From the NCBI RefSeq assembly GCF_042660085.1, contig NZ_JBHSTI010000002.1, positions 600,001 to 632,000 on the forward strand: DNA of 32,000 nt, read 5' to 3'. Positions 6,447 to 32,000 of this stretch are shown here, piece by piece. Made by a program: the position numbers and the translations under genes. The notes below the pieces were generated by a model, which was not told the DNA's origin, made no database searches, and saw only the letters and a program-made list of their open reading frames with translations. Positions within the stretch are counted from its first letter, which is position 1, and each line of letters opens with the position of its first letter. Origin of the DNA: Longivirga aurantiaca. GTDB taxonomy: Bacteria > Actinomycetota > Actinomycetes > S36-B12 > CAIYMF01.

Positions 6447-6959
6447 ATGGGTTACCCGACCAAGCTCCTGGCCGACGACGAGTCCATCGTCTACGAGCTC
6501 AAGCCGCACTGGCGCGCCCTCGTGATGCCGGTGATCGTGCTGCTCGTGACGCTGGCCGTCGGCATCTTCGCCATCGCGTCGTGGGACAACCCAGGCCTCC
6601 GCTGGACCGTCCTCGTGGTCATGCTGCTCGTGCTCGTGATCTGGGTCCTGCGCCCGTTCCTCTACTGGTTCACGACGCAGTACGTCATCACCGACCACCG
6701 CATCATCGTGCGCACCGGACTCATCTCGCGCTCGGGCCGCGACATGCCGCTCTCGCGCGTCAACGACGTCTCGTTCAAGAAGGGTGCGATCGAGCGGTTC
6801 CTCAACTGCGGCACGCTCATGATCGAGTCGGCCGGCACCCAGGGCCAGCTCATCATCAGCAGCGTCCCGGACGTCGAGGACATCCAGCGCGAGATCTACC
6901 GCCTGCACGACGAGGACGACGAGCGCCGCCGCAACAGGCCCTCCTCGCGCGACGTCTGA
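6447..6959 (+). CDS. Membrane protein with bacterial PH domain (bPH_2/YdbS-like)
   Basis: 170 aa with two hydrophobic helices (VMPVIVLLVTLAVGIFAIA and VLVVMLLVLVIWVL). These are followed by YVITDHRIIVRTGLISRSGRDMPLSRVNDV, which is typical of PF03703. It occupies the position equivalent to the membrane protein downstream of birA in mycobacteria. Confidence 0.8.
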   Translation: MGYPTKLLADDESIVYELKPHWRALVMPVIVLLVTLAVGIFAIASWDNPGLRWTVLVVMLLVLVIWVLRPFLYWFTTQYVITDHRIIVRTGLISRSGRDMPLSRVNDVSFKKGAIERFLNCGTLMIESAGTQGQLIISSVPDVEDIQREIYRLHDEDDERRRNRPSSRDV

Positions 6960-6969
6960 CCGCGTCCCG

Positions 6970-7983: not shown

Positions 7984-8038
7984 ACCGCGAGGCGACCTCC
8001 AGCCCCCGGCCGCCGTGGTCGATACTTGGAGGGTGAAC

Positions 8039-10356: not shown

Positions 10357-10357
10357 G

Positions 10358-12259: not shown

Positions 12260-13249
12260 GTGAGCGCAGGTCGGAGCGGGTACGACGTCCGGCACGGCAC
12301 CGATCGGGACGTTCCCGGCCTCGCCAGCGTGACGCTCGTCTCGCCCGACGGCGTCGAGGCCGTCTTCGTGCCCGCGGCCGGCATGGTCGGCACCTCGCTC
12401 ACGCTCGACGGCGTGGACGTGCTCGCCCGTCGGGGCGGGATGACGGCGTACCTCGGAAAGGGGTCGACCTTCGGGATCCCGCTGCTCGCCCCCTGGGCCA
12501 ACCGCCTGTCGGCGCCTACGCAGACCGTGGGCGACGCGACCTGGACCGTGGCCGTGGGCGACCCGCGCGTGCACGGCGACGACAACGGGCACCCCATCCA
12601 CGGCCTGCTGGCCGGGGCGGCCGAGTGGGAGGTGGAGCACGCGGGCGCGTCCGACGACGCCGCGGTGCTGCGCGCCCGGCTGCGGTTCGACGAGTCGCTC
12701 GACTGCTTCGCGCAGTTCCCGTTCCGCCACGACCTCGTGGTGACGGTCGAGCTCGCCGGCACGGTGCTGCGGGTGACCACCGAGCTCGACGCAGTGGGGG
12801 AGCGGGCCGTGCCGGTGTCCTTCGGCTGGCACCCGTGGTTCGACTTCCCGGACGTGCCCCGCGCCCAGTGGGAGGTACACGGTCCGCTGCACCGCCGCGC
12901 CACCCTCGACGCCGAGAACATCCCGACCGGCGAGGTCGCCGAGACCCCGCTGCCGGAGGGGGCGCTCGGCGACGCCTTCCTCGACGACGTGTTCCTCGAG
13001 GTGCCCGACGGCACCGAGGTCACCGTCGCGGCCGGCCCGCGGGAGGTGGTCGTGCGCTACGTCCAGGGGTACGACGTGGCCGTCGTGTTCGCGCCGCTCA
13101 TCATCGACACCGTGTGCGTGGAGCCGATGACCGCGCCGACCGACCCGTTCCGCGGCTGGTGGCCGCTGCGCACCTGCGAGCCGGGCGAGGCCGTGACGGC
13201 GGTCTACGAGATCGAGCTCCGACGGCGTCCCACTAGGCTCGGGGAGTGA
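12260..13249 (+). CDS. Aldose 1-epimerase family protein
   Basis: Motifs GIPLLAPWANRL, HPIHGLL and FGWHPWF are present. GTG 12260 is preferred (GGAGG at 12250-12254, 5-nt spacer); the alternative is GTG 12194. Confidence 0.75.
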   Translation: MSAGRSGYDVRHGTDRDVPGLASVTLVSPDGVEAVFVPAAGMVGTSLTLDGVDVLARRGGMTAYLGKGSTFGIPLLAPWANRLSAPTQTVGDATWTVAVGDPRVHGDDNGHPIHGLLAGAAEWEVEHAGASDDAAVLRARLRFDESLDCFAQFPFRHDLVVTVELAGTVLRVTTELDAVGERAVPVSFGWHPWFDFPDVPRAQWEVHGPLHRRATLDAENIPTGEVAETPLPEGALGDAFLDDVFLEVPDGTEVTVAAGPREVVVRYVQGYDVAVVFAPLIIDTVCVEPMTAPTDPFRGWWPLRTCEPGEAVTAVYEIELRRRPTRLGE

Positions 13250-14430
13250 CTTCGTCCGTCGACGCCCACGTCGCGCCCGGGTTCCCCGTCGTGGGTGTGA
13301 TCGGGGGCGGCCAGCTCGCCCGCATGCTGCAGCAGCCTGCCATCGCGCTCGGCGTCGGCCTGCGCGTGCTCGCCACCTCGATGCAGGAGAGCGCGGCCCA
13401 GGCCGTGCGCGACGTGCGGCTCGGCAACCACGACGACCTCGACGACCTGCGCCGGTTCGCGGCCGGGTGCGACGTCATCACGTTCGACCACGAGCACGTG
13501 CCGCCGCTGCTCCTGAAGACGCTCGAGGACGAGGGCGTCGCCGTACGCCCCGGGGGCCGGGCGCTCGTGCACGCGCAGGACAAGATCATCATGCGCGAGG
13601 CGCTCACCGCCGCCGGTGTGCCGTGCCCGCGCTGGGCCGCGATCGACGAGGTCGAGCAGCTCGAGGCGTTCGGCGCCGAGGCCGGGTGGCCCCTGGTTCT
13701 CAAGACCTCGCGCGGCGGGTACGACGGCCGCGGCGTCTGGGTGGTCGGCTCGTACGCCGAGGCGTCCGCGCTCATCGCGTCGACCGCGCTCAACCCGGGC
13801 GCCCGCTGGCTCGCGGAGGAGAAGGTCGACTTCGTGCAGGAGCTGTCGGCGCAGGTCGCCCGCAGCCCGCACGGCCAGGCCGTGGCCTACCCCGTCGTCC
13901 GCACCGTGCAGACCAACGGCATCTGCACCGAGGTCGTCGCGCCGGCTCCCGGCCTCACCGACGACGAGGCTGTCGCCGCGCAGCAGGCCGCGCTCACCGT
14001 GGCCAAGGCGCTCGAGGTGGTCGGCATGCTCGCGGTCGAGATGTTCGAGACCCGCGACGGCCGCGTGCTCGTCAACGAGCTCGCCATGCGCCCGCACAAC
14101 TCCGGCCACTGGTCGATCGACGGCGCGGTGACCTCGCAATTCGAGAACCACCTGCGCGCGGTGCTCGACCTGCCGCTCGGCGACCCGTCCGCGATCGCGC
14201 CGTACGCCGTGATGGTCAACGTGCTCGGCGGCGACAAGGAGGACGGCCTCTACCGCGCCTACCTGCACTGCATGGCGCGCGACCCGGGGCTCAAGATCCA
14301 CATGTACGGCAAGGACGTGCGGCCGGGGCGCAAGCTCGGCCACGTGACCGTCGTCGGGGACGACCTCGACGACCTCCTCGGGCGCGCGCACCACGCCGCC
14401 GGCTACCTCACGGGAGTCATCGATGAGTGA
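13246..14430 (+). CDS. purK: N5-carboxyaminoimidazole ribonucleotide synthase
   Basis: ATP-grasp protein with [45 protein letters not shown] and KLGHVTV. The GTG start overlaps the upstream stop (GTGA at 13246-13249). An internal GTG at 13291 is an alternative start. Confidence 0.92.
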
Positions 14431-14956
14431 CGGCCTCACCACCGCGGTCGGCGGAGTGCCGCTCGTCGGCATCGTGATGGGCTCGGACTCCGACTGGCCG
14501 GTCATGAAGGCCGCGGCCGAGGCGCTCGCGGAGTTCGGGGTCGCGCACGAGATCGGCGTGGTCTCCGCGCACCGCATGCCCGAGGAGATGGTCGAGTACG
14601 GCCGCACCGCGATCGACCGCGGCCTGCGCGTGATCATCGCGGGCGCCGGCGGCGCCGCGCACCTGCCCGGCATGCTCGCCTCGCTCACGCCCCTGCCGGT
14701 GATCGGCGTGCCGGTGCCGCTCGCGAACCTCGACGGCATGGACTCGCTGCTCTCGATCGTGCAGATGCCCGCCGGCGTGCCCGTTGCGACCGTGGCGATC
14801 GGCAACGCGCGCAACGCGGGGCTCCTCGCCGTACGCATGCTCGCGGCTGGCGACGACGAGCGCGGCGCCGTGCTGCGTCAGCGCATGGCAGCCTTCCAGG
14901 CCCAGCTCAACCAGAGCGCGAAGGACAAGGGCGCCACCCTCCGCCAATCCCTGTAG
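14423..14956 (+). CDS. purE: N5-carboxyaminoimidazole ribonucleotide mutase
   Basis: Motifs [36 protein letters not shown] and GVPV are present. It overlaps purK by 8 nt, with GGGAG 6 nt upstream of the ATG. Confidence 0.95.
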
Positions 14957-19486: not shown

Positions 19487-19502
19487 CTGAGGGCTTCCTC
19501 AG
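19487..19502 (-). terminator. Weak hairpin CTGAGG-gctt-CCTCAG overlapping the EAL gene stop codon
   Basis: 6-bp stem with a tetraloop and no U-tract, in the 97-bp convergent gap. Confidence 0.2.
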
Positions 19503-20815
19503 CGGTGCACGGCGGCAGGCATGGACATCGCAGGCGCGAGGTCGCGCGCCGGTCCGGGCCGCCCGAAGTGCCAGCCCTGGCCGTAGTCGACGCCGTGCCG
19601 GCGGAGGGTCTCCGCGTCGTCCTCGGTCTCGACCCCCTCGGCGACGACGGCGGCTCCCGCAGCGTGCCCGAACTCCACGAGGGAGTGCACGAGGGTCGCG
19701 AGCACGTCGTCGTGGGTGAGGCCGTCCACGATCGACCGGTCGAGCTTGATGACGTCCGGCTTGGTCAGCACGATGTGGCGCAGCGAGGAGAAGCCCGCGC
19801 CGACGTCGTCGATGGCCAGGCGCATCCCCTTGGCGCGCAACGGCTCGAGGCCGTAGGCGAGCGCGTCGTAGTCCTCCACCTGGTCGTGCTCGGAGAGCTC
19901 GAGCAGCACCCGCTCGGCGTCCACCCGCTCGAGGAGGTCGAGGGTCTGGGGGAGCAGCAGCGTGGCGGGGGAGACGTTCATCGCCACGTAGCCGCCGACC
20001 TCGTCGAGGTGGTCCGCCGCGCGCTCGAGGGCGAGGAGCTCGAGCCGGTGCCCGATGCCGATGCTGTGCGCCTGGGCGAAGCACATGTCCGGGGCGAGCT
20101 CCCACTCGGCGGGGAAGCGCGACAGCGCCTCGGCGCCCACGCGAGCGCCGTCCGACAGCCGCACGATGGGCTGCAGCACCACGACCGGTCCGCCCGAGCG
20201 CATCAGGGGCAGCAGCCGGCTCTCGATCTCGTCGCGGACGACCTGCTCGCGCAGCTCCGGCTCGAGGATCACCGAGGCCGCCCGGGCGAGCACCTCCATG
20301 AGGGCCTGGTCGCGCTTGGTCAGCCCCTTGTCGGCCGTGAGCCCGGCCGCGCAGAGGGTGCCGTAGAGCGTCCCGTCCGAGAGCGTGACCGGGACGGAGA
20401 CGTAGCTGCGGATCCGCGGCAGCCTCGCCGCGGGCAGCCCCATGGCCCGGGGGTGCCGCGTGACGTCGGTGATGACGTGCGGGAGGTCGCCGTCGAGGAT
20501 CGCCTGGCAGAACGACGTGGCTTGCACCTGGGTCGAGCCCTCGCGGAAGAGCAAGGCCGCCGGCCCGCTGGCCTCGACCACCTCGAGGTGCTGGGTGGTG
20601 CCGTCGAGGCGCGACAGGAACGCCACCGAGAGGCGCAGCGAGTCCTTGGCGGTCTCGAGCAGCTCGGCGATCTGCTGGGCGGTGTCGGTACGACGGTGTC
20701 GGGCCACGACTACTTGTCGGCCGAACCGGGTGTGTCCTGAACCCCTCGGACGGCCCCGCTGCGGTGACGCTCCGCAGTCCGATGGCTGAGGTGAGCGCTC
20801 CCACGGTGCGTTCAC
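19499..20815 (-). CDS. GAF-EAL cyclic-di-GMP phosphodiesterase
   Basis: The catalytic EAL signature set appears complete: AEALSRF, AMNVSP, LELSEHD, AIDDVGAGFSS, IKLDRSIV, AEGVETE and GQGWHFGRP. The N-terminus is GAF-like. GTG 20815 has GGAGG 5 nt upstream on the minus strand (plus-strand cctcc at 20821-20825). Confidence 0.87.
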   Translation of the reverse strand: MNAPWERSPQPSDCGASPQRGRPRGSGHTRFGRQVVVARHRRTDTAQQIAELLETAKDSLRLSVAFLSRLDGTTQHLEVVEASGPAALLFREGSTQVQATSFCQAILDGDLPHVITDVTRHPRAMGLPAARLPRIRSYVSVPVTLSDGTLYGTLCAAGLTADKGLTKRDQALMEVLARAASVILEPELREQVVRDEIESRLLPLMRSGGPVVVLQPIVRLSDGARVGAEALSRFPAEWELAPDMCFAQAHSIGIGHRLELLALERAADHLDEVGGYVAMNVSPATLLLPQTLDLLERVDAERVLLELSEHDQVEDYDALAYGLEPLRAKGMRLAIDDVGAGFSSLRHIVLTKPDVIKLDRSIVDGLTHDDVLATLVHSLVEFGHAAGAAVVAEGVETEDDAETLRRHGVDYGQGWHFGRPGPARDLAPAMSMPAAVHR

Positions 20816-20824
20816 GTGACCCTC

Positions 20825-20841
20825 CGTGCAACTCGTGCAAC
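20825..20841. repeat. Tandem CGTGCAAC repeat (9-bp period) overlapping the Shine-Dalgarno site of the EAL gene
   Basis: CGTGCAAC occurs at 20825-20832 and again at 20834-20841. Related GCAAC/TTGCAG copies occur at 20901-20911, 20917-20921 and 20924-20929. Confidence 0.6.
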
Positions 20842-20993
20842 GAGCATCACCGCAGGTCGTACAACCTTGAAGGACAAGGGATCGCGGAGTTCACACATAT
20901 GTTGCAGCAACGACTCGCAACACTTGCAGGGTGTGCGTTAGCGTCGCGTCAGCAGCCCGTCCGGGGGGGCGGTAGCTGATCGGGGAGGCTCTC

Positions 20994-21502: not shown

Positions 21503-22894
21503 TCAGCTGCAGAGGTCGTCGGCGGCGGTGCGCGGCTTGTCGGCCGTGGCCGAGGGCGACGCGCTCACGACCTTCACCTTCTGCGCCGCCGTGTACGCCG
21601 AGCCGACCGTGATCTCGAACGTCGGGCCGAAGCCCTTCACCGCCACGAGCTTCGCACCCGGGAGCGACGCGGCGAGGGTCTTCACCGACTCGCTCCACTC
21701 GGAGTCGTAGCGGATCACGGTGGTCTCGCCGACGGTCGCCGGTGCATTGGCCGGCGTGCCGACCACGACGAAGCCGACGGCCGCGAGGTCGGTCGCGGCC
21801 GTGGCGCCGAGGCCCTGCACGTCGGTGCCGTTGAGCACCTTCACCCTGATCGTGCCGGGCGCGACCGTGACGGACTTCGCCGGCTTGGGCGAGACGAGCG
21901 GCTTGTCGTCGCGGATGGCCGCGAAGAGCTCGGCCGACTTGACCTTGTCCCAGATCAGCACGTCGCCGAGTTCGGCGTCGCGGACGTTGCCCGAGATCGG
22001 CACGGTGGTCATCGCGATGCGGCCCGGGCTGATGCCCTTGAACCGGTCGACGAGGTCGAGCATCTGGTCGGTGCCGAGCGAGTCGTCGGTCTTCATGCTG
22101 CTCGCGACCGCGGACAGGAAGTTGTCGACGGTGACCGGGTTGGTCAGGGTGCCGGCCGAGAGCGCCTTGCTCGCCATCGCCGCGACGAACTTCTGCTGGC
22201 GCTTCATGCGGCCGATGTCGGCTGTCGGGTCGATGTAGCGGGCGCGGACGTAGGCGAGCGCCTGGGCGCCGTTCACCGTCTGCTTGCCCGCGGGCAGGTC
22301 GAGGCCGGAGTTCTTGTCGGTCGTGGCCCTGGGCAGGCAGACCTCGACGCCCCCGAGCGCGTCGACCATGGTGAGGAAGCCCTGGAAGTTGATCTCGGCG
22401 TAGTGGTCGATCGTGATGCCGGTCATCTTCTCGACCGTCTCGACCATGAGCTTCGGGCCGCCGACGGCGTACGCGACGTTGAGCTTGCCGGCCCTCGAGC
22501 TGTGCCGCTTGCCCTCGCTGTCGGTGAAGGCGGGGATGGTGGCGCGGGTGTCGCGCGGGAGCGAGACGACGCTGATGCTCTGCCCGTCGCCGGACAGGTG
22601 CACGAGCATCATCGTGTCGGTGTGCTGGCCGTAGTCGTCGTAGCCGAGGTGCAGGGCCTTGCGCTGCTGGTACGACAGCCCGGCGCGGTCGTCGCTCGCG
22701 ACGACCAGCATCGTCAGCGGCTCGCCGTCCTCGAGGGCGCCGCCCGAGGTGCCGGCGTCGACCCTGATGATCTGGTTGCCGTAGCGGTTGGCCGCGGCCC
22801 AGCCCGCCCCGCTCGTCAGCAGGATCGCGACGGACGCCACCGTCGCGGCGACCCGGAGGCCGCGGCGCGGGCGTGCGGTGGGAGCAGAGCTCAT
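21503..22894 (-). CDS. LytR-CpsA-Psr (LCP) family glycopolymer ligase with a LytR_C domain
   Basis: An N-terminal TM anchor is followed by the LCP core MLVVASDDR, HTDTMMLVHL, VVSLPRDT, KLNVAYAVGG and NFQGFLTMVDALGGVEV. The C-terminal LytR_C region reads IRVKVLNGTDVQGLGA...GF. Start at ATG 22894 (MSSAPTARPRR); the track start at 22993 is unlikely. Confidence 0.88.
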   Translation of the reverse strand: MSSAPTARPRRGLRVAATVASVAILLTSGAGWAAANRYGNQIIRVDAGTSGGALEDGEPLTMLVVASDDRAGLSYQQRKALHLGYDDYGQHTDTMMLVHLSGDGQSISVVSLPRDTRATIPAFTDSEGKRHSSRAGKLNVAYAVGGPKLMVETVEKMTGITIDHYAEINFQGFLTMVDALGGVEVCLPRATTDKNSGLDLPAGKQTVNGAQALAYVRARYIDPTADIGRMKRQQKFVAAMASKALSAGTLTNPVTVDNFLSAVASSMKTDDSLGTDQMLDLVDRFKGISPGRIAMTTVPISGNVRDAELGDVLIWDKVKSAELFAAIRDDKPLVSPKPAKSVTVAPGTIRVKVLNGTDVQGLGATAATDLAAVGFVVVGTPANAPATVGETTVIRYDSEWSESVKTLAASLPGAKLVAVKGFGPTFEITVGSAYTAAQKVKVVSASPSATADKPRTAADDLCS

Positions 22895-22977
22895 GCGGGG
22901 AAGTCCTCGTCCGATCGACAGGGCCTGACCACGGTACGACGCACGGGGGCCCGTGCCGGTGCCGCAACGCCGGGGTC

Positions 22978-23000
22978 GAGTGACGTGACTCACGTCGCTC
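22978..23000. promoter_or_regulatory. 23-bp dyad GAGtGACGTGA-c-TCACGTCgCTC (15-bp perfect core at 22982-22996)
   Basis: GACGTGA and TCACGTC are exact inverted repeats around C 22989, and the flanks extend the dyad with one mismatch. It lies in the LCP/GT2 divergent gap, just upstream of a TACGCT -10-like hexamer. Confidence 0.35.
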
Positions 23001-23010
23001 CGGCGCCCCC

Positions 23011-23016
23011 TACGCT
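23011..23016 (+). promoter_or_regulatory. Candidate -10 hexamer TACGCT for the GT2 gene (very short or no leader)
   Basis: TACGCT fits TANNNT and sits 9 nt upstream of ATG 23026, with no Shine-Dalgarno sequence in between. Confidence 0.25.
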
Positions 23017-23025
23017 CGTCCCGAC

Positions 23026-24033
23026 ATGAGCGAGCAGACCCCTCCGCCCCCCGGCGTCTCCATCGTGGTGCCCGTCCTCGACGAGGAACGGCACCTCGAG
23101 GACGCCGTCGCGCGCCTGCTCGGCCAGCGCTACGACGGCCCGCTCGAGGTCGTGCTCGCGCTCGGACCGAGCACCGACGGCACCGACGGGATCGCCGCGC
23201 GGCTCGCGGCCGCCGACCCGCGGCTGCGGCTCGTGCCCAACCCCACCGGACGCACCCCGGCCGGCCTCAACGCGGCCATCGCCGCATCGACGTACGACAT
23301 CGTGGTGCGCTGCGACGGCCACGCGCTCGTGCCGGACGACTACGTCGCGATCGCGGTCGAGGTGCTGCAGCGCACCGGTGCCGACAACGTCGGCGGGATG
23401 ATGGCGGCCGAGGGCACGACGCCGTTCGAGCGCGCGGTGGCTGCGGCGATGACGTCCCGGCTCGGTGTCGGATCGGCGTCGTTCCACACCGGCGGGCAGG
23501 AGGGCGAGGCGCTCACGGTCTACCTCGGGGCCTTCCGCCGCTCGGCGATCGACCGGGTCGGCGGCTACGACGAGACGATGGTCCGCGCGCAGGACTGGGA
23601 GATGAACCACCGGATCCGCGAGAGCGGCGGCCTCGTCTGGTTCACCCCGGGCATGCAGGTGACCTATCGCCCGCGCAGCACGGTGAAGGCGCTCGCCCGT
23701 CAGTACCTCGAGTACGGCCGGTGGCGGCGCGAGGTGGTGCGCCGCTACCCCGACACCCTCAGCATGCGCTACCTGGCCGCGCCGGTCGCGGTGGCGGGCG
23801 TGGCCGTGGGGACGGTGGCGGGCGTGGCCGCGGCGGCCGGTGCGCCGTCGTGGCTGGCGCTGGGCTGGCTCGCGCCCGCGGGCTACGCCGCGCTCGTGAC
23901 GGTGGGCGGCGCGGCCGCGGCCCGGCACGAGGGCGTCGCGGTGGCCGCGCGGATGCCGCTGGTGCTCGCGACGATGCACGGCTCGTGGGGGTTCGGGTTC
24001 CTCACGTCGCCGCGCGACGTCGCCTCTAGCTGA
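23026..24033 (+). CDS. Family 2 glycosyltransferase with C-terminal hydrophobic helices
   Basis: The N-terminus has a GT-A fold signature: VSIVVPVLDEERHLEDAV, GPSTDGTD, VRCDGH. The C-terminal roughly 90 aa are rich in hydrophobic Ala/Val/Gly stretches. Confidence 0.88.
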   Translation: MSEQTPPPPGVSIVVPVLDEERHLEDAVARLLGQRYDGPLEVVLALGPSTDGTDGIAARLAAADPRLRLVPNPTGRTPAGLNAAIAASTYDIVVRCDGHALVPDDYVAIAVEVLQRTGADNVGGMMAAEGTTPFERAVAAAMTSRLGVGSASFHTGGQEGEALTVYLGAFRRSAIDRVGGYDETMVRAQDWEMNHRIRESGGLVWFTPGMQVTYRPRSTVKALARQYLEYGRWRREVVRRYPDTLSMRYLAAPVAVAGVAVGTVAGVAAAAGAPSWLALGWLAPAGYAALVTVGGAAAARHEGVAVAARMPLVLATMHGSWGFGFLTSPRDVASS

Positions 24034-25489
24034 CGCAGACGTTCTCGTCCGCGGGCTTGGCGGTGACGCCCGAGCTGGGCGACCCGGAGCCCGACGACTT
24101 GATGACGACGGTCTGCGTGCCCGTCCAGTCCTTGCCGATGGTCAGCGTGAGGACGTTGCCGCTGCCCGTGGCTGTGCGCTCGCCGGCCTTGGCCGCGAAC
24201 GCCAGCGTGCGGGCGGACTCGTCGTACTTCGGGTCGTAGTCGACCGTGGTGACGTCGAGGATCTTCGGGGCGGTGGCCACGCCGACGACCACGAAGCCCT
24301 GCGCGGCGAGCTGCTCCGCGGCCACGCGTGCCTGGCCGTCGACCCCGCTGCCGTTGAGGACCTTGACCCGGACCGCGGACGGCGCCGTCGTGAGGACCGC
24401 GCCGTCGAGCTTGGAGGCGCCGGGCGGGTAGGCGGTGTCGTTGATCATCGACTGCCAGATCGGGTCGGCCTTGGCGTCGTTCCACTCGATCGTGGCGCCG
24501 TCGCTGCGCGCGACCCAGGGGACGGTGACGAACTTGACCTTGGACGGTGTGAGCCCCTGCATCGACACGGCCAGGCCCGTGAGGTCGTCGACGGTGCCGA
24601 GGCCGGTGTCGACGGTGAGCGACTCGGACACCGAGACGAGGACGGAGTACAGCGTGCCGGCATCGGTGAGCAGGCTCTTGGACTGCACCTGCCGGATGAG
24701 AGCCGAGAGGAACACCTGCTGGCGGTCGATGCGCGAGAGGTCGCTGCCGTCGCCGAGGGTCTTGCGCGCCCGGGCGAAGGCGAGCGCCTGGGTGCCGTCG
24801 AGCACGTGCGTGCCGGCGTCGAGCTTGAGGCCGGAGAGGGGGTCGTCGACGGCCTCGGCCAGGCAGATCGGCACGCCGCCGACGGAGTCGACGACGGCCT
24901 GGAAGCCCTTGAAGTCCACCACCACGAAGTGGTCGATGCGCACGTCGGTCAGCGCCTCGACCGCGCGGATGGTGCAGCTCGGGCCGCCGGCGGAGAACGC
25001 CTCGTTGAACCGTCCGGTGACCGTGCTGGTGTCGCCGTCCTTGCACGAGGGGCGGGTCACCCAGGAGTCGCGGGGGATGCTCACCGCGAGCGCGCGCGAC
25101 CGGTCGGCCGACACGTGCAGCAGGATCGTGGTGTCGCTGTGGCCGTTGCCCGACGCCGTGGTGCCCGGGTTGCCGAAGTCGTCGCCCTGGCCGGTGCGGG
25201 TGTCCGTGCCCATCACGAGGATGTTGAGCGGCTCGTACTCGGTGGGATCGGTCGGCGCGGGCTTGGTCGGGCGGTTGGTGCCGGCCTGGATCTCCTGCTT
25301 GTCGATGTTGTCGTTGATGCCCTGCAGGCCGGCCCAGGCGACCGTGCTGCCGAGCGTGGCGACGACGGTGACCGCGGAGGCGACGGCGACGGCGATGCGC
25401 ACGGTCCGGTGGCCGTGGGCGCCGGCGATGCGGGACGCCTGCACCGGACGCGGGGTCTCCGCGGGCGCGCCGTCGTCGGGGGTGCTCAC
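24026..25489 (-). CDS. LytR-CpsA-Psr (LCP) family glycopolymer ligase with a LytR_C domain (second paralogue)
   Basis: A TM anchor is followed by NILVMGTDTR, HSDTTILLHV, AVSIPRDS, RFNEAFSAGG and DFKGFQAVVDSVGGVPI. The LytR_C region reads VRVKVLNGSGVDGQARVAAEQLAAQGF. GTG start at 25489. Its 3' end overlaps the GT2 stop by 8 nt. Confidence 0.9.
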   Translation of the reverse strand: MSTPDDGAPAETPRPVQASRIAGAHGHRTVRIAVAVASAVTVVATLGSTVAWAGLQGINDNIDKQEIQAGTNRPTKPAPTDPTEYEPLNILVMGTDTRTGQGDDFGNPGTTASGNGHSDTTILLHVSADRSRALAVSIPRDSWVTRPSCKDGDTSTVTGRFNEAFSAGGPSCTIRAVEALTDVRIDHFVVVDFKGFQAVVDSVGGVPICLAEAVDDPLSGLKLDAGTHVLDGTQALAFARARKTLGDGSDLSRIDRQQVFLSALIRQVQSKSLLTDAGTLYSVLVSVSESLTVDTGLGTVDDLTGLAVSMQGLTPSKVKFVTVPWVARSDGATIEWNDAKADPIWQSMINDTAYPPGASKLDGAVLTTAPSAVRVKVLNGSGVDGQARVAAEQLAAQGFVVVGVATAPKILDVTTVDYDPKYDESARTLAFAAKAGERTATGSGNVLTLTIGKDWTGTQTVVIKSSGSGSPSSGVTAKPADENVCVS

Positions 25490-25495
25490 CCGGTG

Positions 25496-25501
25496 ATTCT
25501 A
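25496..25501 (-). promoter_or_regulatory. Candidate -10 hexamer TAGAAT for a leaderless LCP transcript
   Basis: Plus-strand attcta at 25496-25501 reads TAGAAT on the minus strand. It sits exactly 6 nt upstream of GTG 25489 with no Shine-Dalgarno sequence. Confidence 0.35.
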
Positions 25502-25701
25502 CGGGCGGTGTCGCGGGCGGACGTCCGGGAGCGGGTGCGTTCGGTTACCGGTCAGATTGCTACGAAAAGGGACAAAGCGGCCCGCTGAGTCCCATGAGGG
25601 CTCAAGAGTCACACGCATCACTCCGATGGGTGAAGCAGGAGGCGCGAGGAACAACCGACCGCGCGCCGCTGCCACCCCCGCCCCCACGGAGGCCCCCAGT
25701 C

Positions 25702-28700
25702 ATGCGTCGTGTCGCCGCCAGCGTCGCCGTGCTCCTCGCGGTGCCCGCCCTGATCGCCCTCCCGGTGGTCACGGGGCCGCAGGCGCAGATCCGGCCGGTG
25801 ACCCCGACGGTGGCGCACCTCGCGCTGACCGGCGTCGACCCCGTGGCGCTCGCGACCTCCCGCGCTCCCGACCCCGAGCACGACCACGGCCACGACGCGA
25901 TCGACGACGGCGCGGCGCCCGACGCTCCCGCGACCGAGGCAGCGCACGACGAGGCAGCGCACGACGAGGCAGCGCACGACGACGCTGCGCCGGCGAAGGT
26001 CGCCGCAACGCAGGCCCCGCACGCCGAGGAGCCGGAGCCCGGACCCGCCGTGCCGCTCGAGCCCGCCGCCGTCACGCCGCCCACCGACACCGCGCCGTTC
26101 TCGCTCGTGGCCGTGAGCTGGACCGGTGAGGCCCCGGCCGGCACCACGGTGCAGGTCCGCGTCCGCGAGAAGGACGGCGTCTGGACCGACTGGCAGGAGC
26201 TGGGCTCGGGCGCCGAGCACGGGCCCGACCCGGGCACCGCCGAGGCCGAGGCCGCGGGTCTGCGGCACGGCACCGACCCGCTGCTCACCGCCGGCGGGAG
26301 CGACGGCGTGCAGGTGCGCATCGACAGCCCCGGCGGCGTGCTTCCGGCCGACGCCTCGGTGTCGCTCGTCGACCCCAAGACCTCCGAGGCCGACGTCCTC
26401 GCCGCATCGACGCCGCCCGCGACGGCGGTAGCCGCGGGCGACCCGCTCAAGCCCTCGATCATCACGCGCGCCCAGTGGGGTGCGGACGAGTCGCTGCGGG
26501 GCAGCGCGCCGGTCTACACCGGCCCGATCAAGGTGGGCTTCGTCCACCACACGGCGTCGACCAACAACTACACCGCCGACACCGCCGCCGCGCAGGTGCG
26601 CGCCCTGTACGCCTACTTCACGCTGAGCCTCGGCTACAGCGACATCGCGTACAACTTCTTCGTCGACCGCTTCGGCCGGCTCTACGAGGGACGCGCCGGC
26701 GGCATGGACAAGAACGTGCTCGGCGGCCACACCGCGGGCTTCAACCAGAACACCTTCGCGGTCTCGGCACTCGGCAACTTCGACATCTACAAGCCGACCT
26801 CGAACGAGGGCACGGCGATGGCCACGGCGATGGCCCGCCTCCTCGCCTGGAAGCTCGCGCTCAACCACGCCGACCCGAGCGGTACGGCGTCGCTCGTCTC
26901 CAACAGCGGCGCCGGCACGTCGAAGTATGAGCCCGGCCAGACCGCGGTCGTGCCGGTGATCTCCGGGCACCGCGACATCGGCCTCACCGCCTGCCCCGGC
27001 CAGTACCTCGAGTCGTACCTCCCCAGCATCCGCACCCAGGCCAAGGCGTTCATGGGCACGCAGCTGCTCAACCCCGCGCTGGCGCCGTCGGTGTCGCCGT
27101 ACGCCGGGACGGGCGGCTCGATCAGCACGCGCGCCACGGGCGCGGTGTCGTGGAAGCTCGAGGTGTTCTCGCCCTGCCTCGCCACGCCCATCCGCACCGT
27201 CACCGGGAGCCTCGCCTCGGCGGGCACCGTCACGGCCACGTGGAACCAGCGCCGCGCCGACGGCAGCGCCGCACCCCCCGGCACCTACCGGATGGTGCTG
27301 TCGGCGACCGCGGGCGACGGGGTGCCCTACCCCGTGAGCAAGACCTTCGTCGTGACCGAGACGGCCACCTCGCCGCTCGGGCCGTGCACCCAGGTCGCCC
27401 GCGTCGCGGAGTCGGAGCGGTACGCCGCAGCCGTGCGCGTCGGTCGCATCGCCGCGCCGAGCTCGAAGGTCGTCGTCCTCGCCCCGGGCTCGGACGCGTA
27501 CGAGCCCGAGGCGCTCGTCGCGGCACCGCTCGCCGCCGCGAAGAAGGCGCCGCTTCTGCTCACCGGCACCGCGAGCGTGCCGGCCGCCGTCGTCACCGAG
27601 ATCAAGCGCCGCGGCGCCACCACGGCCTACGTCGTCGGCACGAGCACGCAGGTGTCGAGCGCTGTCATCACCCAGCTGAGGTCGCTCGGCGTCACCACGA
27701 TCACCCGCCTGTCGGGCACCACGCGCTCGGCCACCGCCACCGCGGTCGCCGGCGCGATGGGCCAGCGCACCAAGGCCGTGGTCGTGTCGTTCAGCAGCGG
27801 CTCGTCGTCCGACGTCAACGCTGCCGCATCGGCCGCGGCCGCGTCGCTCGACCGCCCGCTGCTCGTCGTGGCCCCGACCAGTGCGCCCGCCGTGACCCTC
27901 GCGGCGATGAAGACCCTCGGCATCACCTCGACCACGGTCGTCGGGTCGAGCACCGCGATCTCCGCCGCCGTCGTCACGGCGGTCAAGGGCACGCGGGTCA
28001 CCGGGTCGGACGCCGCCGCGACCTCGGTGGCTCTGCTCGCCGCGCTGGCGCCGTCGGCCACGAAGGTCTCGGCGCTGCCCACCGGCTCGGGCTACGGTCG
28101 GGCCGTGGCTGCCGGTGCTCGTCGTCCGCTCGTGCTCGGCGCGGGCGGCACCGCGGGCATCGCGCGGTGGCTCACCACCGCGACCGCCGTCCACGTGCTG
28201 GCCGTCGCCCCGACCGCGGTCTGGGCCGACTCGGCGCTGACGCCGATGGTCACCTCGATCACCTCGCGCACCGCGGCGCCGGCGCCCACGCCGACCCCGA
28301 CCACGACGCCCGCCCCGGCGACGGCGGCGGCCACGACCGTGACGCCCTCGGTGCCCACCGGCTTCGTGTTCAACGGCGCGGGCTACGGCCACGGCGTCGG
28401 CATGTCGCAGTACGGCGCCCGCGGCATGGCGCTCGAGGGGAAGACCGCCACCGAGATCGTCACGCACTACTACACCGGCACCACCGTCACGCCGGTGAAG
28501 GACGACGCCGCGATCCGCGTGAACCTCCTGCACCGGGCCACCAAGGCGCTCTTCCGGACCGAGGCGCTCACCACGGGCGGCGGCGGCATCGAGGTCACGC
28601 TGGCCGGCCAGGATCCCGAGCTCGGCACGTCGGCCGACATCTTCAGCGTCGTGCAGGCCGGCTCGTCGGTGACCGTCATCAAGACCCGGGGCACCGCGAC

Positions 28701-30399
28701 CCGCACGCTCGGCACCGCGGCCTCGGTCACCATCCGGTGGGAGGGCACGCGCGACCCCGGTGGCGCCGGCACGACGCCGACCGTGCTCAACGTCGTGCCC
28801 GAGAAGCAGGCGAACTTCGCCTCCGAGGGCCACCGCTACCGCTACGGCACCGTGATCGTCCAGTCGGCGAGCGCCGGCACGTTCCAGGTCAACAACCGGG
28901 TGCGGATCCACGACGAGTACCTGCTCGGCATCGCCGAGGTCTCCAACTCCTGGCCGGCGGCGTCGCTGCAGGCGCAGGTGCTGGCCGCGCGCAGCTACGT
29001 CCTCAGCAAGGCGGGCACGCTGCGCAGCGCCTGCCTCTGCCACGTGGACGACGGCGGCGGCCCCTACTACGACCAGACCTTCGCCGGCTGGATCAAGGAG
29101 TCGGGCGCGCTCGGCCAGAACTGGCGCGACGCCGTCAAGGCCACCTACGCCAACACCACGGTGGCCGGCGAGACGGTGCTGCGAGGCAAGGCGATCCTGT
29201 CCGGCGGGCAGCCGATCACGGCGTTCTACTACGCGGCGTCCGGCGGCCGCACCCAGAGCTCGGCCGACGTGTGGGGAGGCGTCCTCCCGTGGGCGCAGAG
29301 CGTCGACGACCACTGGAGCCTCGACGCGTCCGTGCCGTGGTCGCAGTGGATCCCGCGCGAGCGCACCCAGGCCCAGGTGGCCGCCGCGTTCGGCCTCCCC
29401 GACGTCATGCGCATCGACCTCTCGGCCCGCACCGCCGGCGACGGCGTCAGGACCGCGATCGCCTGGTCGTCATCGGGCGCCTCGGCCACGATCAGCGGCG
29501 AGTCGCTGCGCACGCGCCTGTCGCTGCCCGGCACCTGGGTCAGCCGCGTCGCCGACGTCCGCTCCGGCGACGCTGCCACGATCGCGGTGCGCACCGCGCA
29601 GAAGTCGTCGTCCGAGACCGTCGTCCTCGCGCCGATCGCCGACCCCGCCTCGGTCGCCGTCGCCGGCAACCTGGCCGCGCAGGAGGGCTGGGCGCTCCTG
29701 CTCACCACCTCGGACGCGCTCAGCGCCGTCACGCGCACCGAGCTCGCTCGCCGTACTCCCACCACGGTGTACGCCGTCGGCACGCCGACCGACCTGCCCG
29801 CGGCCCTCGTCTCCGACGTCGGTGCCATGGCCGGCGTCGGCACCGTCACCCGCGTCACCGGCACCAACGCCACCGGCGTCTCGGTCAACGCCGCCAAGCT
29901 GCTGGCCCCGGCCACCGGTGCGGTCGCGGTCGTCGTCGGCGAGACCGACCTCGGGTCGCTCGCCGTCGGGTCCGGCGCCGCGCGCGCCAAGAAGGGCCCG
30001 CTCCTCGTCGTGCCCGGCGGGGCGGCGCCGTCCACCTCGGTGCCGGCGTACCTCGACGCCCTCGCGCCGAAGGCCACGGTGGTCATCGGGTCGACCGACG
30101 CCGTCGCCGACAGCGTGGCCGCCACGCTGCCCCAGGTGAGCCGCCTCGCAGGCGCCGACGCCGTCGAGACCGCGAGCAAGGCCGCCACCTGGGCCGGCTC
30201 GGCCAACGCCCGTCTGGTGGTGCTGGGCAAGGCCCTGGCACCGGTCAGCGCCGTCGCGCTCGCCCCGGGCGCGGTCGTGCTCGTGGTCGACACCAGCGTC
30301 GCGACCTCGACCAAGGTCGTGCTCCAGCGCGGTGTCGCCACGATCGTGGCCGGGCCGAACATGCCCGACGCGCTCGTGACGACGGCGCGGCGTCTCTAG
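25702..30399 (+). CDS. Secreted multidomain peptidoglycan hydrolase: signal peptide, H/D-rich repeat, Amidase_2, Ig-like, 3x CWB2, Pro/Thr linker, SpoIID/LytB, 3x CWB2
   Basis: ATG at 25702 with GGAGG at 25688-25692; signal peptide MRRVAASVAVLLAVPALIALP. The amidase part has IITRAQWGADE, GFVHHTAS, YNFFVDRFGRLYEGR and ISGHRDIGLTACPG, with His codon at 26968-26970 and Cys codon at 26992-26994. The SpoIID part has GAGYGHGVGMSQYGA, DEYLLGIAEVSNSWPAASLQAQVLAARSY (Glu codon at 28936-28938) and AFYYAASGGRT. CWB2-like repeats occur at about 27391-28233 and 29566-30396. Confidence 0.9.
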   Translation: MRRVAASVAVLLAVPALIALPVVTGPQAQIRPVTPTVAHLALTGVDPVALATSRAPDPEHDHGHDAIDDGAAPDAPATEAAHDEAAHDEAAHDDAAPAKVAATQAPHAEEPEPGPAVPLEPAAVTPPTDTAPFSLVAVSWTGEAPAGTTVQVRVREKDGVWTDWQELGSGAEHGPDPGTAEAEAAGLRHGTDPLLTAGGSDGVQVRIDSPGGVLPADASVSLVDPKTSEADVLAASTPPATAVAAGDPLKPSIITRAQWGADESLRGSAPVYTGPIKVGFVHHTASTNNYTADTAAAQVRALYAYFTLSLGYSDIAYNFFVDRFGRLYEGRAGGMDKNVLGGHTAGFNQNTFAVSALGNFDIYKPTSNEGTAMATAMARLLAWKLALNHADPSGTASLVSNSGAGTSKYEPGQTAVVPVISGHRDIGLTACPGQYLESYLPSIRTQAKAFMGTQLLNPALAPSVSPYAGTGGSISTRATGAVSWKLEVFSPCLATPIRTVTGSLASAGTVTATWNQRRADGSAAPPGTYRMVLSATAGDGVPYPVSKTFVVTETATSPLGPCTQVARVAESERYAAAVRVGRIAAPSSKVVVLAPGSDAYEPEALVAAPLAAAKKAPLLLTGTASVPAAVVTEIKRRGATTAYVVGTSTQVSSAVITQLRSLGVTTITRLSGTTRSATATAVAGAMGQRTKAVVVSFSSGSSSDVNAAASAAAASLDRPLLVVAPTSAPAVTLAAMKTLGITSTTVVGSSTAISAAVVTAVKGTRVTGSDAAATSVALLAALAPSATKVSALPTGSGYGRAVAAGARRPLVLGAGGTAGIARWLTTATAVHVLAVAPTAVWADSALTPMVTSITSRTAAPAPTPTPTTTPAPATAAATTVTPSVPTGFVFNGAGYGHGVGMSQYGARGMALEGKTATEIVTHYYTGTTVTPVKDDAAIRVNLLHRATKALFRTEALTTGGGGIEVTLAGQDPELGTSADIFSVVQAGSSVTVIKTRGTATRTLGTAASVTIRWEGTRDPGGAGTTPTVLNVVPEKQANFASEGHRYRYGTVIVQSASAGTFQVNNRVRIHDEYLLGIAEVSNSWPAASLQAQVLAARSYVLSKAGTLRSACLCHVDDGGGPYYDQTFAGWIKESGALGQNWRDAVKATYANTTVAGETVLRGKAILSGGQPITAFYYAASGGRTQSSADVWGGVLPWAQSVDDHWSLDASVPWSQWIPRERTQAQVAAAFGLPDVMRIDLSARTAGDGVRTAIAWSSSGASATISGESLRTRLSLPGTWVSRVADVRSGDAATIAVRTAQKSSSETVVLAPIADPASVAVAGNLAAQEGWALLLTTSDALSAVTRTELARRTPTTVYAVGTPTDLPAALVSDVGAMAGVGTVTRVTGTNATGVSVNAAKLLAPATGAVAVVVGETDLGSLAVGSGAARAKKGPLLVVPGGAAPSTSVPAYLDALAPKATVVIGSTDAVADSVAATLPQVSRLAGADAVETASKAATWAGSANARLVVLGKALAPVSAVALAPGAVVLVVDTSVATSTKVVLQRGVATIVAGPNMPDALVTTARRL
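25936..25980 (+). repeat. Perfect 3 x 15-bp in-frame tandem repeat GAGGCAGCGCACGAC encoding (EAAHD)3
   Basis: Three identical copies at 25936-25950, 25951-65 and 25966-80, read directly from the sequence. They lie inside the N-terminal low-complexity region of the hydrolase gene. Confidence 0.95.
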
Positions 30400-30427
30400 A
30401 TCAGCGGCGTCCCTGGATCAACAGCCT

Positions 30428-31159
30428 CTAGGCGAGCACGGCTCCGCAGCCCTCGCGGTCGGCCACGTCCGACGCGTCGGCGGCAGGGTCCGTCAGCAGC
30501 ACCACCGCGACATCCGCGGCGAGCGGCAGGGCGATCAGGGCGAGCGCGGCTGCCGGGAGCGCTGCGGTGACGAGCACCCGCGAGCCCGGGGCGGCGCCGA
30601 GGTCCGCCGCGAGCGCGAGCGCCTCGGCGAGCGCCTCGGCCTGGGTCAGCGTGCGGTCGCCGTACCTCAGCCACGCGTCGTCGCCCCGCACCGTGCGGTA
30701 CGCCGAGAAGCGGTCGCCGTGGCCGCGCACCTCGATCGCGGCGTCGAGCACGCCCGCGGGCAACGGCTCGCGGAACGGCATGCCGAGCGGGTGCAGCGCG
30801 GTCCCCAGGGTGAGCGGCGCGCGCTCGGTGCCGAGGTCGTCCGGGCCGAGCACCGCCACCTCGACGCCGGGATCCTCGACCGGGCCGCCGATCCAGGCGA
30901 TCCCGCCCACCAGCGCCGCCGCTCCGAGCCAGACGCTGGTCTGCCAGTGCACCGGCAGACGCAGCGACACCGCCGAGCCGGGCTGGAGGTCGGCGTCGTC
31001 GCGCAGCAGGTTGGCCGCCTTGGCGATGTTGTTCTCGTACGTGCGCACCGAGAGCTCGGTGCGGGCGCCGTCGGGGCCGAGATGGGTGACGAGGGGACGG
31101 GCGGGATCGCGCGCGAGCAGCGCGGCAAGGGCGACGGGCACGGTCACGGGCGCGGTCAC
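30428..31159 (-). CDS. Conserved actinobacterial protein, TIGR03089-like (truncated adenylation-domain-like fold)
   Basis: The C-terminal 243 aa of track ORF 30428..31561(-). The N-terminus ELSVRTYENNIAKAANLLRDDADLQPGSAVSLRLPVHWQTSVWLGAAALVGG resembles the start of adenylate-forming enzymes. No SGTTG P-loop is visible. It is divergent from manB. Start at GTG 31159 is tentative. Confidence 0.6.
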   Translation of the reverse strand: MTAPVTVPVALAALLARDPARPLVTHLGPDGARTELSVRTYENNIAKAANLLRDDADLQPGSAVSLRLPVHWQTSVWLGAAALVGGIAWIGGPVEDPGVEVAVLGPDDLGTERAPLTLGTALHPLGMPFREPLPAGVLDAAIEVRGHGDRFSAYRTVRGDDAWLRYGDRTLTQAEALAEALALAADLGAAPGSRVLVTAALPAAALALIALPLAADVAVVLLTDPAADASDVADREGCGAVLA

Positions 31160-31213
31160 GGCATCGAGCCTAGGGCGGCCTGACGGCTGCGCCCGGTGTG
31201 GGAGAGTGGCGAT

Positions 31214-32000
31214 GTGCTCGAAGCCGTCCTCCTCGTCGGGGGCCAGGGGACTCGCCTGCGCCCGCTGACCGTCACCACGCCCAAGCCGATGCTGCCCGTC
31301 GCGGGCGTGCCGTGCACCGAGCACCAGATCGCACGCGCCCGCGAGGCGGGCGTCACGCGCGTGGTGCTGGGCACGTCGTACCGGCCCGAGGTGTTCCTCG
31401 ACTACTTCGGCGACGGCTCGCGCTTCGGCGTCGAGCTCGTCTACGCCACCGAGGACGTGCCGCTGGGCACCGGCGGCGCGATCCGCCACGTGGCGCCGCA
31501 CCTGCTGTCCGGCCCGGACGACCCGGTCCTGGTCTTCAACGGCGACATCCTCTCGGGGCACGACATCGCCGGCCAGGTGCAGGCGTGGCGCGACTCGTCG
31601 TCGGACGTGTCGCTCTACCTCACCCGCGTCGAGGACCCGCGCGCCTACGGCCTCGTGCCGACCGACGCCGACGGACGCGTGACGCAGTTCCTCGAGAAGC
31701 CCTCGACGCCCGAGGAGATCGTCACCGACCAGATCAACGCCGGCTGCTACGTCTTCCGCCGCTCGGTGATCGACAGCATCCCCACCGGTCGCCCGGTGTC
31801 CGTGGAGCGCGAGACGTTCCCCGGCCTGCTGGCACGCGGTGCCGTCGTCACCGGCTTCGTCGACGACGGCTACTGGCTCGACCTCGGCACGCCGCTCGCG
31901 TTCGTGCAGGGCTCGTGCGACCTCGTCCTCGGCCGCGCCCCCAGCCCCGCCCTGCCGGGGCGGACCGGCCAGTTCCTCGTGCGCCCGGGCGCCGAGGTGG
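31214..32000 (+). CDS. manB: Mannose-1-phosphate guanylyltransferase (GDP-mannose pyrophosphorylase), 3' end outside the window
   Basis: Absent from the ORF track because no stop codon lies inside the window. My own translation from GTG 31214 reads VLEAVLLVGGQGTRLRPLTVTTPKPMLPVAGVP...GTSYRPEVF...EDVPLGTGGAI...VFNGDILSG...DQINAGCYVF...VSVERETFP. This is closely co-linear with mycobacterial ManB (Rv3264c) as I recall it. GTG 31196 is an alternative start. Confidence 0.88.
   Translation, partial: MLEAVLLVGGQGTRLRPLTVTTPKPMLPVAGVPCTEHQIARAREAGVTRVVLGTSYRPEVFLDYFGDGSRFGVELVYATEDVPLGTGGAIRHVAPHLLSGPDDPVLVFNGDILSGHDIAGQVQAWRDSSSDVSLYLTRVEDPRAYGLVPTDADGRVTQFLEKPSTPEEIVTDQINAGCYVFRRSVIDSIPTGRPVSVERETFPGLLARGAVVTGFVDDGYWLDLGTPLAFVQGSCDLVLGRAPSPALPGRTGQFLVRPGAEV

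Follow-up and report, generated by a model that had tools for sequence, protein, structure and literature searches.

Closest described systems

Vegetative wall turnover and autolysis in Bacillus subtilis involve the amidase LytC (CwlB) and the SpoIID/LytB-domain protein LytB (CwbA), both of which carry CWB2-type repeats (PMC10653849, PMC5842191); the two genes are adjacent and have common regulators (PMC10653849). Here we describe a gene of Longivirga aurantiaca (Sporichthyales, Actinomycetota) that joins an Amidase_2 domain and a SpoIID/LytB domain in one predicted secreted polypeptide, with a triplet of CWB2 repeats behind each catalytic unit. The gene occupies positions 25702-30399 on the forward strand of the 32 000-nucleotide stretch of DNA that was analyzed (the window). 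We favor the reading, at a probability of roughly 0.6, that the encoded product (the window protein) is a secreted bifunctional peptidoglycan hydrolase, or autolysin, that is held non-covalently on the wall and acts during vegetative growth.

The LytC/LytB pair is the nearest precedent. In contrast to the pair, the window protein is one polypeptide; its amidase is of the Amidase_2 family with an Rv3811_N domain, whereas LytC is an Amidase_3; its SpoIID/LytB domain appears circularly permuted, unlike that of LytB; and its family keeps the catalytic glutamate, whereas LytB is reported to be non-hydrolyzing. The CWB2 repeats stand ahead of the catalytic domains in LytB and LytC, and behind them in the window protein.

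The original prediction, made from the sequence, had instead compared the fusion to the engulfment proteins SpoIIP and SpoIID, which are more distant. The SpoIID-SpoIIP(-SpoIIM) machinery of Bacillus and Clostridioides does follow the same chemical logic and has its catalytic glutamate at the equivalent position. Clostridioides difficile SpoIID alone has no detectable peptidoglycan activity unless the SpoIIP amidase acts first, and mutation of its E101 abolishes activity (PMC6221140), while the SpoIID of Waddlia breaks down peptidoglycan when combined with the amidase AmiA or CwlH (PMC6635528). By analogy, an amidase that acts first and a SpoIID domain that then acts on bare glycan would be the most reasonable reading of the fusion, so that this part of the comparison stands; the choice of partner system does not, with the LytB/LytC pair nearer and the amidase family different (Amidase_2 here, PF07454 for SpoIIP). 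The Amidase_2 and SpoIIP folds differ. Unlike the engulfment machinery, the window protein has no membrane anchor or SpoIIM, its host is no endospore former, and its gene has no sporulation context; unlike SpoIID proper, it fails the SpoIID equivalog model TIGR02870, has a permuted domain, and carries a CxCH motif instead of the H134/C140/H145/C146 set. It is neither SpoIID proper nor a part of the DMP engulfment complex. The SpoIID homologs of Waddlia, Chlamydia, and cyanobacteria resemble it in serving outside sporulation, at the division septum, and in cooperating with amidases in vitro (PMC6635528), but they are separate from their amidases, and we found no permutation reported for them.

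Three other systems share parts of the layout. Mycobacterial Ami3 (Rv3811 / MSMEG_6406) likewise has Rv3811_N (PF27503) and then Amidase_2 in its N-terminal half; Rv3811 has been listed among the peptidoglycan amidases of the Amidase_2 type (PMC3987819), and the amount of Ami3 influences both growth and the formation of biofilms (PMC12735335). Its chromosomal location differs from that of the fusion gene. To our knowledge, Ami3 has no SpoIID domain or CWB2 repeats. In C. difficile, Cwp6 (three CWB2 repeats with Amidase_3) also uses a CWB2 triplet as a wall anchor for a hydrolase, with genes near a wall-polymer locus, and the Cwp family members, among them the characterized lytic transglycosylase Cwp19 (PMC6016235), all carry three CWB2 domains (PMC5842191). 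Each Cwp protein combines a single catalytic domain with a single triplet, whereas the window protein has two of each; they also belong to a different phylum, and their ligand, PSII, is a polymer of C. difficile only. Staphylococcal Atl/AtlE is, like the window protein, a single secreted precursor with an Amidase_2 domain, middle wall-binding repeats, and a second glycan-cleaving domain, but this second domain is a GH73 glucosaminidase and not SpoIID, the repeats are of a type different from CWB2, and Atl is processed.

Judged by its sequence, the window protein belongs at once to the SpoIID/LytB class (as a permutant), to the Amidase_2/PGRP class (with an Ami3-type N-terminus), and to the CWB2-anchored proteins. 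It is a clade-specific elaboration, with two CWB2 triplets, of a widespread family that has no specific database name and is apparently unstudied. We found no paper with SpoIID and Amidase_2 in one protein, and a review of wall-hydrolase architectures that names many Amidase_2 partners, including the SLT lytic transglycosylase, never mentions SpoIID (PMC6403190).

Domain architecture and catalytic residues

The gene is a single unbroken open reading frame on the + strand ending at 30399, with 25594-30399 as its longest listed form. Translated from the ATG at 25702, it yields 1565 aa that match, with 100% identity from end to end, the NCBI protein P0001, named 'cell wall-binding repeat-containing protein [Longivirga aurantiaca]' in the database; a look-up of P0001 by exact sequence found no entry. 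The G+C content at third codon positions (GC3) is 0.95 for this frame, and all family matches reported here were obtained on it. Window G+C is 70-77%, and the long overlapping open reading frames on other frames across the same region are a usual by-product of DNA with 74% G+C. The reading frame 25702-30399 is the true coding frame. Its features are as follows.

25688-25692, +, Shine-Dalgarno-like GGAGG, 9 nt before the ATG at 25702 (sequence reading)
25702-30399, +, predicted bifunctional wall hydrolase gene, complete, 1565 codons plus stop (open reading frame, GC3 0.95, identity to P0001)
25702-25782, +, probable Sec signal peptide, MRR plus the hydrophobic stretch VAASVAVLLAVPALIALPVV, residues 1 to ~27 (read from the translation, with the cleavage site deduced)
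25864-25992, +, His/Asp/Ala-rich low-complexity region (translation, Tandem Repeats Finder)
26059-26451, +, Rv3811_N-type domain, residues ~120-250 (PF27503, precomputed for P0001)
26521-27003, +, Amidase_2 domain of the peptidoglycan recognition protein (PGRP) / T7-lysozyme type, residues 274-434 (Pfam, 43-48 bits against a gathering threshold of 26)
27064-27381, +, Ig-like beta-sandwich (FlgD_ig-like), residues ~455-560 (Pfam, homologs)
27394-28239, +, first CWB2 triplet, repeats 565-658, 667-759, and 764-846 (Pfam, 56-64 bits; family-trained repeat model)
28267-28353, +, Pro/Thr/Ala-rich linker, residues ~856-884 (translation; low-complexity tandem repeats at 28274-28347)
28354-28506, +, SpoIID/LytB segment that is normally C-terminal (FVFNGAGYGHGVGMSQYGA...HYYTG), here first, residues 885-935 (TIGR02669 and 4RWR matches)
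28507-28896, +, beta-rich region of ~130 residues, 936-1065 (outside the TIGR02669 match; model)
28897-29556, +, SpoIID/LytB catalytic part, residues 1066-1285 (Pfam SpoIID, TIGR02669, alignment to 4RWR, 5I1T, and 5TXU)
29539-30381, +, second CWB2 triplet, repeats 1280-1371, 1382-1474, and 1479-1560 (Pfam, 34.2 bits in three stretches; repeat model)

Pfam, NCBIfam, and the repeat hidden Markov model (HMM) agree with the domain order that the original prediction had claimed for one uninterrupted frame. In Pfam, Amidase_2, CW_binding_2, and SpoIID all score above their gathering thresholds, and neither catalytic domain is missing or has its catalytic residues substituted. The His/Asp-rich repeat that had been noted corresponds to a 15-bp tandem repeat at 25935-25990 that encodes (EAAHD) ~3.7 times with 95% matches (Tandem Repeats Finder), and the six CWB2 repeats that had been counted, in two triplets, number exactly six with an HMM trained on the repeats of the family.

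To follow conservation, we searched 5.8 billion proteins and obtained 926 homolog clusters at E <= 1e-10; all domain and residue counts below refer to the best 120 of these, which reach down to 36% identity. The Rv3811_N segment is kept in 119 of the 120 clusters, with W161, P193, G212, P215, and D231 invariant. It lies directly before Amidase_2; PF27503 is among the precomputed Pfam entries of P0001, and in homolog P0046 this model is named Rv3811_N and placed ahead of Amidase_2. Residues ~120-250 are a known domain, more than a spacer.

The key residues of the amidase are H282, H283, Y317, H423, T429, and C431. We take H282/H283, H423, and C431 to be the zinc ligands and Y317 the catalytic tyrosine, as in T7 lysozyme and PGRP-LB; the alignment to structure 4ZXM agrees with the ligand positions. 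The ligands are intact at the codons for which this had been predicted (the His pair in FVHHT; H423 at 26968-26970; C431 at 26992-26994, with the H-x7-C spacing). H283, T429, and C431 are kept in all 120 clusters, Y317 and H423 in 119, and H282 throughout alignments of 24 and 63 sequences. A Cys instead of a Ser at the last ligand position marks catalytic members of Amidase_2. The Amidase_2 sequence matches ~30 PGRP structures, and in Foldseek the amidase domain of P0046 superposes on PGRPs with template modeling (TM) scores of 0.74-0.81 at a probability of 1.00.

The possible Ig-like domain of the original prediction is a closer call in the window protein, where the FlgD_ig match at residues 497-538 scores 23.7-26.1 bits, just under the threshold of 27; in homologs the same domain reaches 38-40 bits. 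Two cysteines, C492 (27175-27177) and C562 (27385-27387), flank it and are invariant across the family, and may form a disulfide.

For the second catalytic unit, Pfam SpoIID (PF08486) matches residues 1061-1149 with 24.9-26.9 bits against a gathering threshold of 23, and NCBIfam TIGR02669 (SpoIID_LytB) matches the native sequence with 127-130 bits against a cut-off of 83.3, whereas TIGR02870 gives 108.7-123 bits, well under its cut-off of 234.75. The TIGR02669 match consists of two stretches in swapped order. Segment 885-935 matches positions 224-269/270 of the model and residues 277-322 of Bacillus anthracis SpoIID (4RWR), while residues 1071-1275 correspond to what comes earlier in both, so that the GHGVGMSQYGA segment lies ~135 residues upstream of the catalytic part. 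When segment 885-935 is moved in silico behind residue 1283, TIGR02669 matches in one stretch (positions 9-269/270) at 134 bits; when it is deleted, the score falls to 64.5 bits, below the cut-off. From the swapped order, the single match restored by reordering, and the loss of score on deletion, we conclude that the SpoIID/LytB domain is, as far as its sequence matches tell, a circular permutant with the GHGVGMSQYGA segment first. All 120 homolog clusters have the permuted order, and we found no paper that mentions a permuted SpoIID.

An AlphaFold2 model of residues 880-1290 has a mean predicted local distance difference test score (pLDDT) of 95.8 and a predicted TM score (pTM) of 0.92. The permuted piece has a pLDDT of 89-99 and is therefore modeled as built into one compact unit with the rest. 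Region 936-1065, between the two matching parts, is all-strand with pLDDT >90 in the model, and matches separately in most of the 120 homologs.

The catalytic glutamate of SpoIID lies in an E-Y-L-x-G-(x)n-E motif, as E88 in B. subtilis. In the window protein E1079 (28936-28938), the codon that the original prediction had singled out, takes the place of E101 in an alignment to C. difficile SpoIID (5TXU) and of the corresponding glutamate in 4RWR. It is kept, with its surrounding motif, in 119 of the 120 clusters, as are E1072, Y1073, and R1097 in all 120; GHGxGxSQxGA is nearly invariant. With both domains keeping their catalytic residues in 118-120 of the 120 clusters, conservation points to purifying selection on both active sites.

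A further motif, C1111-L-C1113-H1114 (29032-29043), followed by D1116, is also conserved (C1111 in 118/120, C1113 in 118/120, H1114 in 103/120). It sits in the same loop as the zinc site of C. difficile SpoIID, which consists of H134, C140, H145, and C146 (PMC6221140), but the residues are not position-equivalent, and we reject a zinc site of that type in the window protein; the conserved CxCH may represent a distinct metal site.

Possession of this domain does not imply cleavage, and one alternative is that the SpoIID/LytB module binds glycan without cutting it and stimulates the amidase in cis, which would make the window protein a self-activated amidase. SpoIID is said to enhance SpoIIP in work by Morlot et al. 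from 2010. LytB/CwbA (PF08486) 'does not hydrolyze PG' (peptidoglycan) but stimulates wall amidases, and shares the LytC regulon and an adjacent locus (PMC10653849), and CWB2 domains, when first described, were noted for their homology to LytB and LytC (PMC5842191). We judge this quite improbable for the present family: its catalytic glutamate and motif are conserved as described, some genomes retain a SpoIID-only gene with no amidase within 8 kb, which fits poorly with a pure in-cis activator, and the older negative LytB assays may not have used bare glycan.

Both CWB2 triplets align to the Cwp6, Cwp8, and SlpA structures, and the C-terminal 285 aa alone pass the CWB2 threshold (34.2 against 24.9 bits). 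The triplets are collinear and 35% identical to each other, whereas each is 55-57% identical to its positional orthologs. A recent internal duplication is rejected on this comparison; the duplication of the triplet is therefore old. In C. difficile, CWB2 triplets bind the wall polymer PSII, and the genes for CWB2 proteins adjoin a polymer-synthesis locus with LCP and mannose genes (PMC5842191).

Family, split forms, and proposed function

Every one of the best 120 clusters has its domains in the order Rv3811_N, Amidase_2, Ig, an optional CWB2 triplet, permuted SpoIID, and an optional tail. Three forms can be told apart.

1000-1270 aa, form without CWB2 in which Ig runs into SpoIID within ~6 residues, most of the best 120 clusters
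length varies, form with one CWB2 triplet, 13 of the best 120 clusters
length varies, form with two CWB2 triplets, as in the window, 18 of the best 120 clusters

The catalytic fusion is thus the conserved core of a large family of Actinomycetota, and the CWB2 triplets are a clade-specific addition. With one genome per GTDB species, we count at least 482 family loci (482 of 600 pattern matches encode relatives, among the matches listed), and these are overwhelmingly from Nanopelagicales and other uncultured Actinomycetes. The architecture is no peculiarity of the Longivirga genome, and databases already hold the family under generic names; its spread across these sequences indicates that the fusion is old and widespread. 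As the original prediction had supposed, experimental characterization seems to be lacking, in that we found no experimental paper on the architecture. A phage origin is rejected, since 2.9 million viral contigs hold only 6 relatives, weak and SpoIID-only.

Two side observations concern the homologs. Many short fused ones (P0056, P0062, P0077, P0082, P0084, and others) have an extra C-terminal beta-sandwich tail of ~130-230 residues, which in some is flagged as PF24695 (PITM1-3) in place of CWB2 and is just under threshold in P0084. The titles of several metagenome-assembled genomes, 'Bifidobacterium breve' (L014, L064, and L072) and 'Rubrivirga sp.' (L052, L058, L061, and L071), are implausible for freshwater actinobacterial contigs, and these labels look unreliable.

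At some loci, the same chromosomal position holds half-only genes (L016, L017, L019-L022, L024-L027, L031, L040, L045, L048, L062, L066, L068, L069, and L078, split pairs included). The amidase half alone (Rv3811_N-Amidase_2-Ig-CWB2) occurs at about 10 loci (9-11), e.g. L021, and the SpoIID half alone at six, four with SpoIID by itself and two with SpoIID-CWB2 (L016 and L017); two loci encode both halves, 2-3 kb apart. The window protein looks like the sum of the two half-only types. Rough neighbor-joining trees place the SpoIID-only genes within the fused clade with two triplets, and the amidase-only group as sister to that clade, which suggests, as the simpler reading of these sequences, that the ancestor was fused and that half-only genes arose from it secondarily, by fission or by loss.

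Processing of the staphylococcal Atl precursor separates its amidase and glucosaminidase halves, and the two-triplet form could be a precursor of this type, its linker being cut after export to release an amidase with three CWB2 repeats and a SpoIID/LytB protein with three more, which would cooperate by co-location. Each catalytic unit indeed has a complete CWB2 triplet, the linker of ~30 Pro/Thr/Ala-rich residues joins the units, the triplets diverged long ago (35% identity), and the half genes just described (L021 and about ten others; L016 and L017) exist at the same locus elsewhere. Still, most members have neither linker nor CWB2, and their Ig-SpoIID junction within ~6 residues means that the tight fusion is ancestral; the half-only genes nest in or beside the fused clade, suggesting secondary loss; and there is no predictable cleavage site. 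We therefore consider an Atl-type precursor unlikely, if the strongest of the alternatives.

In the bifunctional autolysin that we favor, Rv3811_N, the zinc Amidase_2, and Ig would make up an N-terminal unit of Ami3 layout that cuts the MurNAc–L-Ala bond and so strips stem peptides from glycan strands. The permuted SpoIID/LytB domain would act second, as a lytic transglycosylase that cuts the stripped strands with Glu1079 as its catalytic acid. The CWB2 triplet behind each catalytic unit most likely anchors the protein to a secondary wall glycopolymer, and the adjacent genes probably encode the LCP ligases that join this polymer to peptidoglycan. The protein would serve in wall turnover, in separating daughter cells at the septum, or in both, and not in engulfment or sporulation.

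Several points weigh against this reading. A Foldseek search of the SpoIID-module model against the PDB gave TM scores of at most 0.12 (galectins and spike proteins) and no SpoIID chain, despite the clear sequence match to 4RWR, which leaves the SpoIID assignment to the sequence profiles. The activities of both domains are predicted, a weakness of the case, and B. subtilis LytB, being listed as non-hydrolyzing, implies that a SpoIID/LytB domain is no guarantee of glycan cleavage. Wall-polymer anchoring is likewise a prediction, drawn from the LCP, GT2, and mannose-1-phosphate guanylyltransferase genes that flank the fusion gene. The half-only loci mean that covalent coupling is dispensable. 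Finally, the full-length model of the short fused homolog P0046 has confident domains but a pTM of 0.54, so that a fixed two-site geometry or composite active site is unsupported, and in the window protein a ~280-residue triplet and the Pro/Thr linker separate the two catalytic sites. In view of these last observations, the 'self-sufficient, processive' enzyme of the original prediction was conjecture.

A bolder version of the favored reading would make the protein the main wall-splitting and turnover machine of an actinomycetotal branch that includes the very abundant freshwater Nanopelagicales, and a single-chain relay in which the Ami3-like amidase passes a stripped glycan strand straight to the permuted SpoIID domain, with the permutation fixed for head-to-tail coupling; we hold this as a tentative idea that is more probably wrong. 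Were the relay true, nature would for the first time have supplied a single-chain example of the general dependence of SpoIID-family enzymes on an amidase, and the SpoIID fold would have a new form that evolved independently. SpoIID-family enzymes are widespread outside spore formers, and their vegetative role and amidase dependence rest on a few in vitro studies; a fusion kept in hundreds of actinobacterial species is 'Rosetta-stone' evidence for a general and ancient amidase-then-SpoIID relay, and it offers a single protein for a direct test of coupling. As a family encoded beside LCP ligases in the dominant freshwater actinobacteria, where cell-wall biology is almost unstudied, it may include a central division or turnover enzyme, and its circularly permuted domain amounts to a clean natural experiment with the SpoIID fold. 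Should the protein prove to be one more redundant autolysin, better annotation would be all that is gained.

Gene neighborhood and flanking sequence

The fusion gene is flanked by two LCP ligase genes, one GT2 gene, and one mannose-1-phosphate guanylyltransferase gene (21503-25489 and 30428-31999). The immediate neighbors are as follows.

24026-25489, -, LCP-family glycopolymer-peptidoglycan ligase, divergent from the fusion gene (Pfam, NCBIfam, synteny)
30428-31144, -, TIGR03089-family gene (NCBIfam, 173 bits; synteny)
31184-31999, +, mannose-1-phosphate guanylyltransferase, cut by the window end (NF052502, Pfam NTP_transferase, synteny)

The TIGR03089 open reading frame is listed as extending to 31561 (377 aa), where it overlaps the start of the divergent guanylyltransferase gene. 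Its true start is probably near 31144 (~239 aa), because the family match begins at residue 144 and the equivalent in L079 has 239 aa. For the guanylyltransferase, the best NCBIfam match is NF052502, with 402.7 bits against a cut-off of 440, a shortfall expected of a gene cut by the window end.

We compared synteny among those of the loci L001-L079 that have enough flanking sequence. Nearly every one has the divergent LCP ligase, the fusion gene, and then the TIGR03089 and mannose-1-phosphate guanylyltransferase genes; in L079, FbiB, FbiA, and a WhiB gene come after the guanylyltransferase. A GT2 gene belongs to the conserved order too, on the LCP side. This gene order presumably corresponds to the Rv3267-Rv3260c envelope and division region of Mycobacterium tuberculosis. 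The conserved neighborhood identifies a core envelope locus that seems to be vertically inherited.

This setting bears on whether the protein has a specialized role, as a weapon against competitors or in development- or spore-specific remodeling as in Bacillus engulfment. SpoIID is best known from engulfment, and multi-domain lysins with wall-binding repeats are familiar from phages and secreted antibacterial proteins. Yet profile searches of the window proteins found no SpoIIM, SpoIIP, or other sporulation gene in the window, in line with the original prediction, and the TIGR02870 score (109-123 against 234.75 bits) is far from that of SpoIID proper. Hundreds of genomes, those of Nanopelagicales among them, keep the family in this core envelope locus, viral relatives are virtually absent, and the presence of CWB2 triplets next to LCP genes suggests that the target is the wall polymer of the producer itself. 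Nanopelagicales genomes are small. A specialized role of either kind is therefore highly improbable.

Noncoding elements around the gene were also sought. ydaO-type riboswitches are frequent ahead of actinobacterial wall hydrolase genes; an Rfam search for this or another RNA element gave no match at the gathering threshold in the whole window, and an upstream riboswitch is rejected on that basis. The sole Rfam match in 25350-25850 is a sub-threshold ffh small RNA within the coding region. Over 25300-30700, a promoter scan found no promoter-like site, and a terminator scan found one match only, inside the gene and at chance level. The sequence GTCACACGCATCAC occurs at 25608-25621, 94 nt upstream of the start codon, and at -93 in the two closest loci checked, L001 and L009. 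It is reminiscent of an MtrA-type direct repeat; an MtrA-like repeat was set aside as uninformative, since it is kept in the closest relatives only.

Elsewhere in the window, two acyl-CoA carboxylase carboxyltransferase genes lie on opposite strands in 391-6423, together with genes for a NUDIX hydrolase and a biotin-protein ligase. Second-messenger genes form a cluster at 6823-9661 and 19502-20890 and encode an adenylate/guanylate cyclase, a diguanylate cyclase of the GAF-GGDEF type, and, farther along, a phosphodiesterase of the GAF-EAL type. A histidine kinase is encoded at 10208-11707, and purK and purE at 13237-14953.

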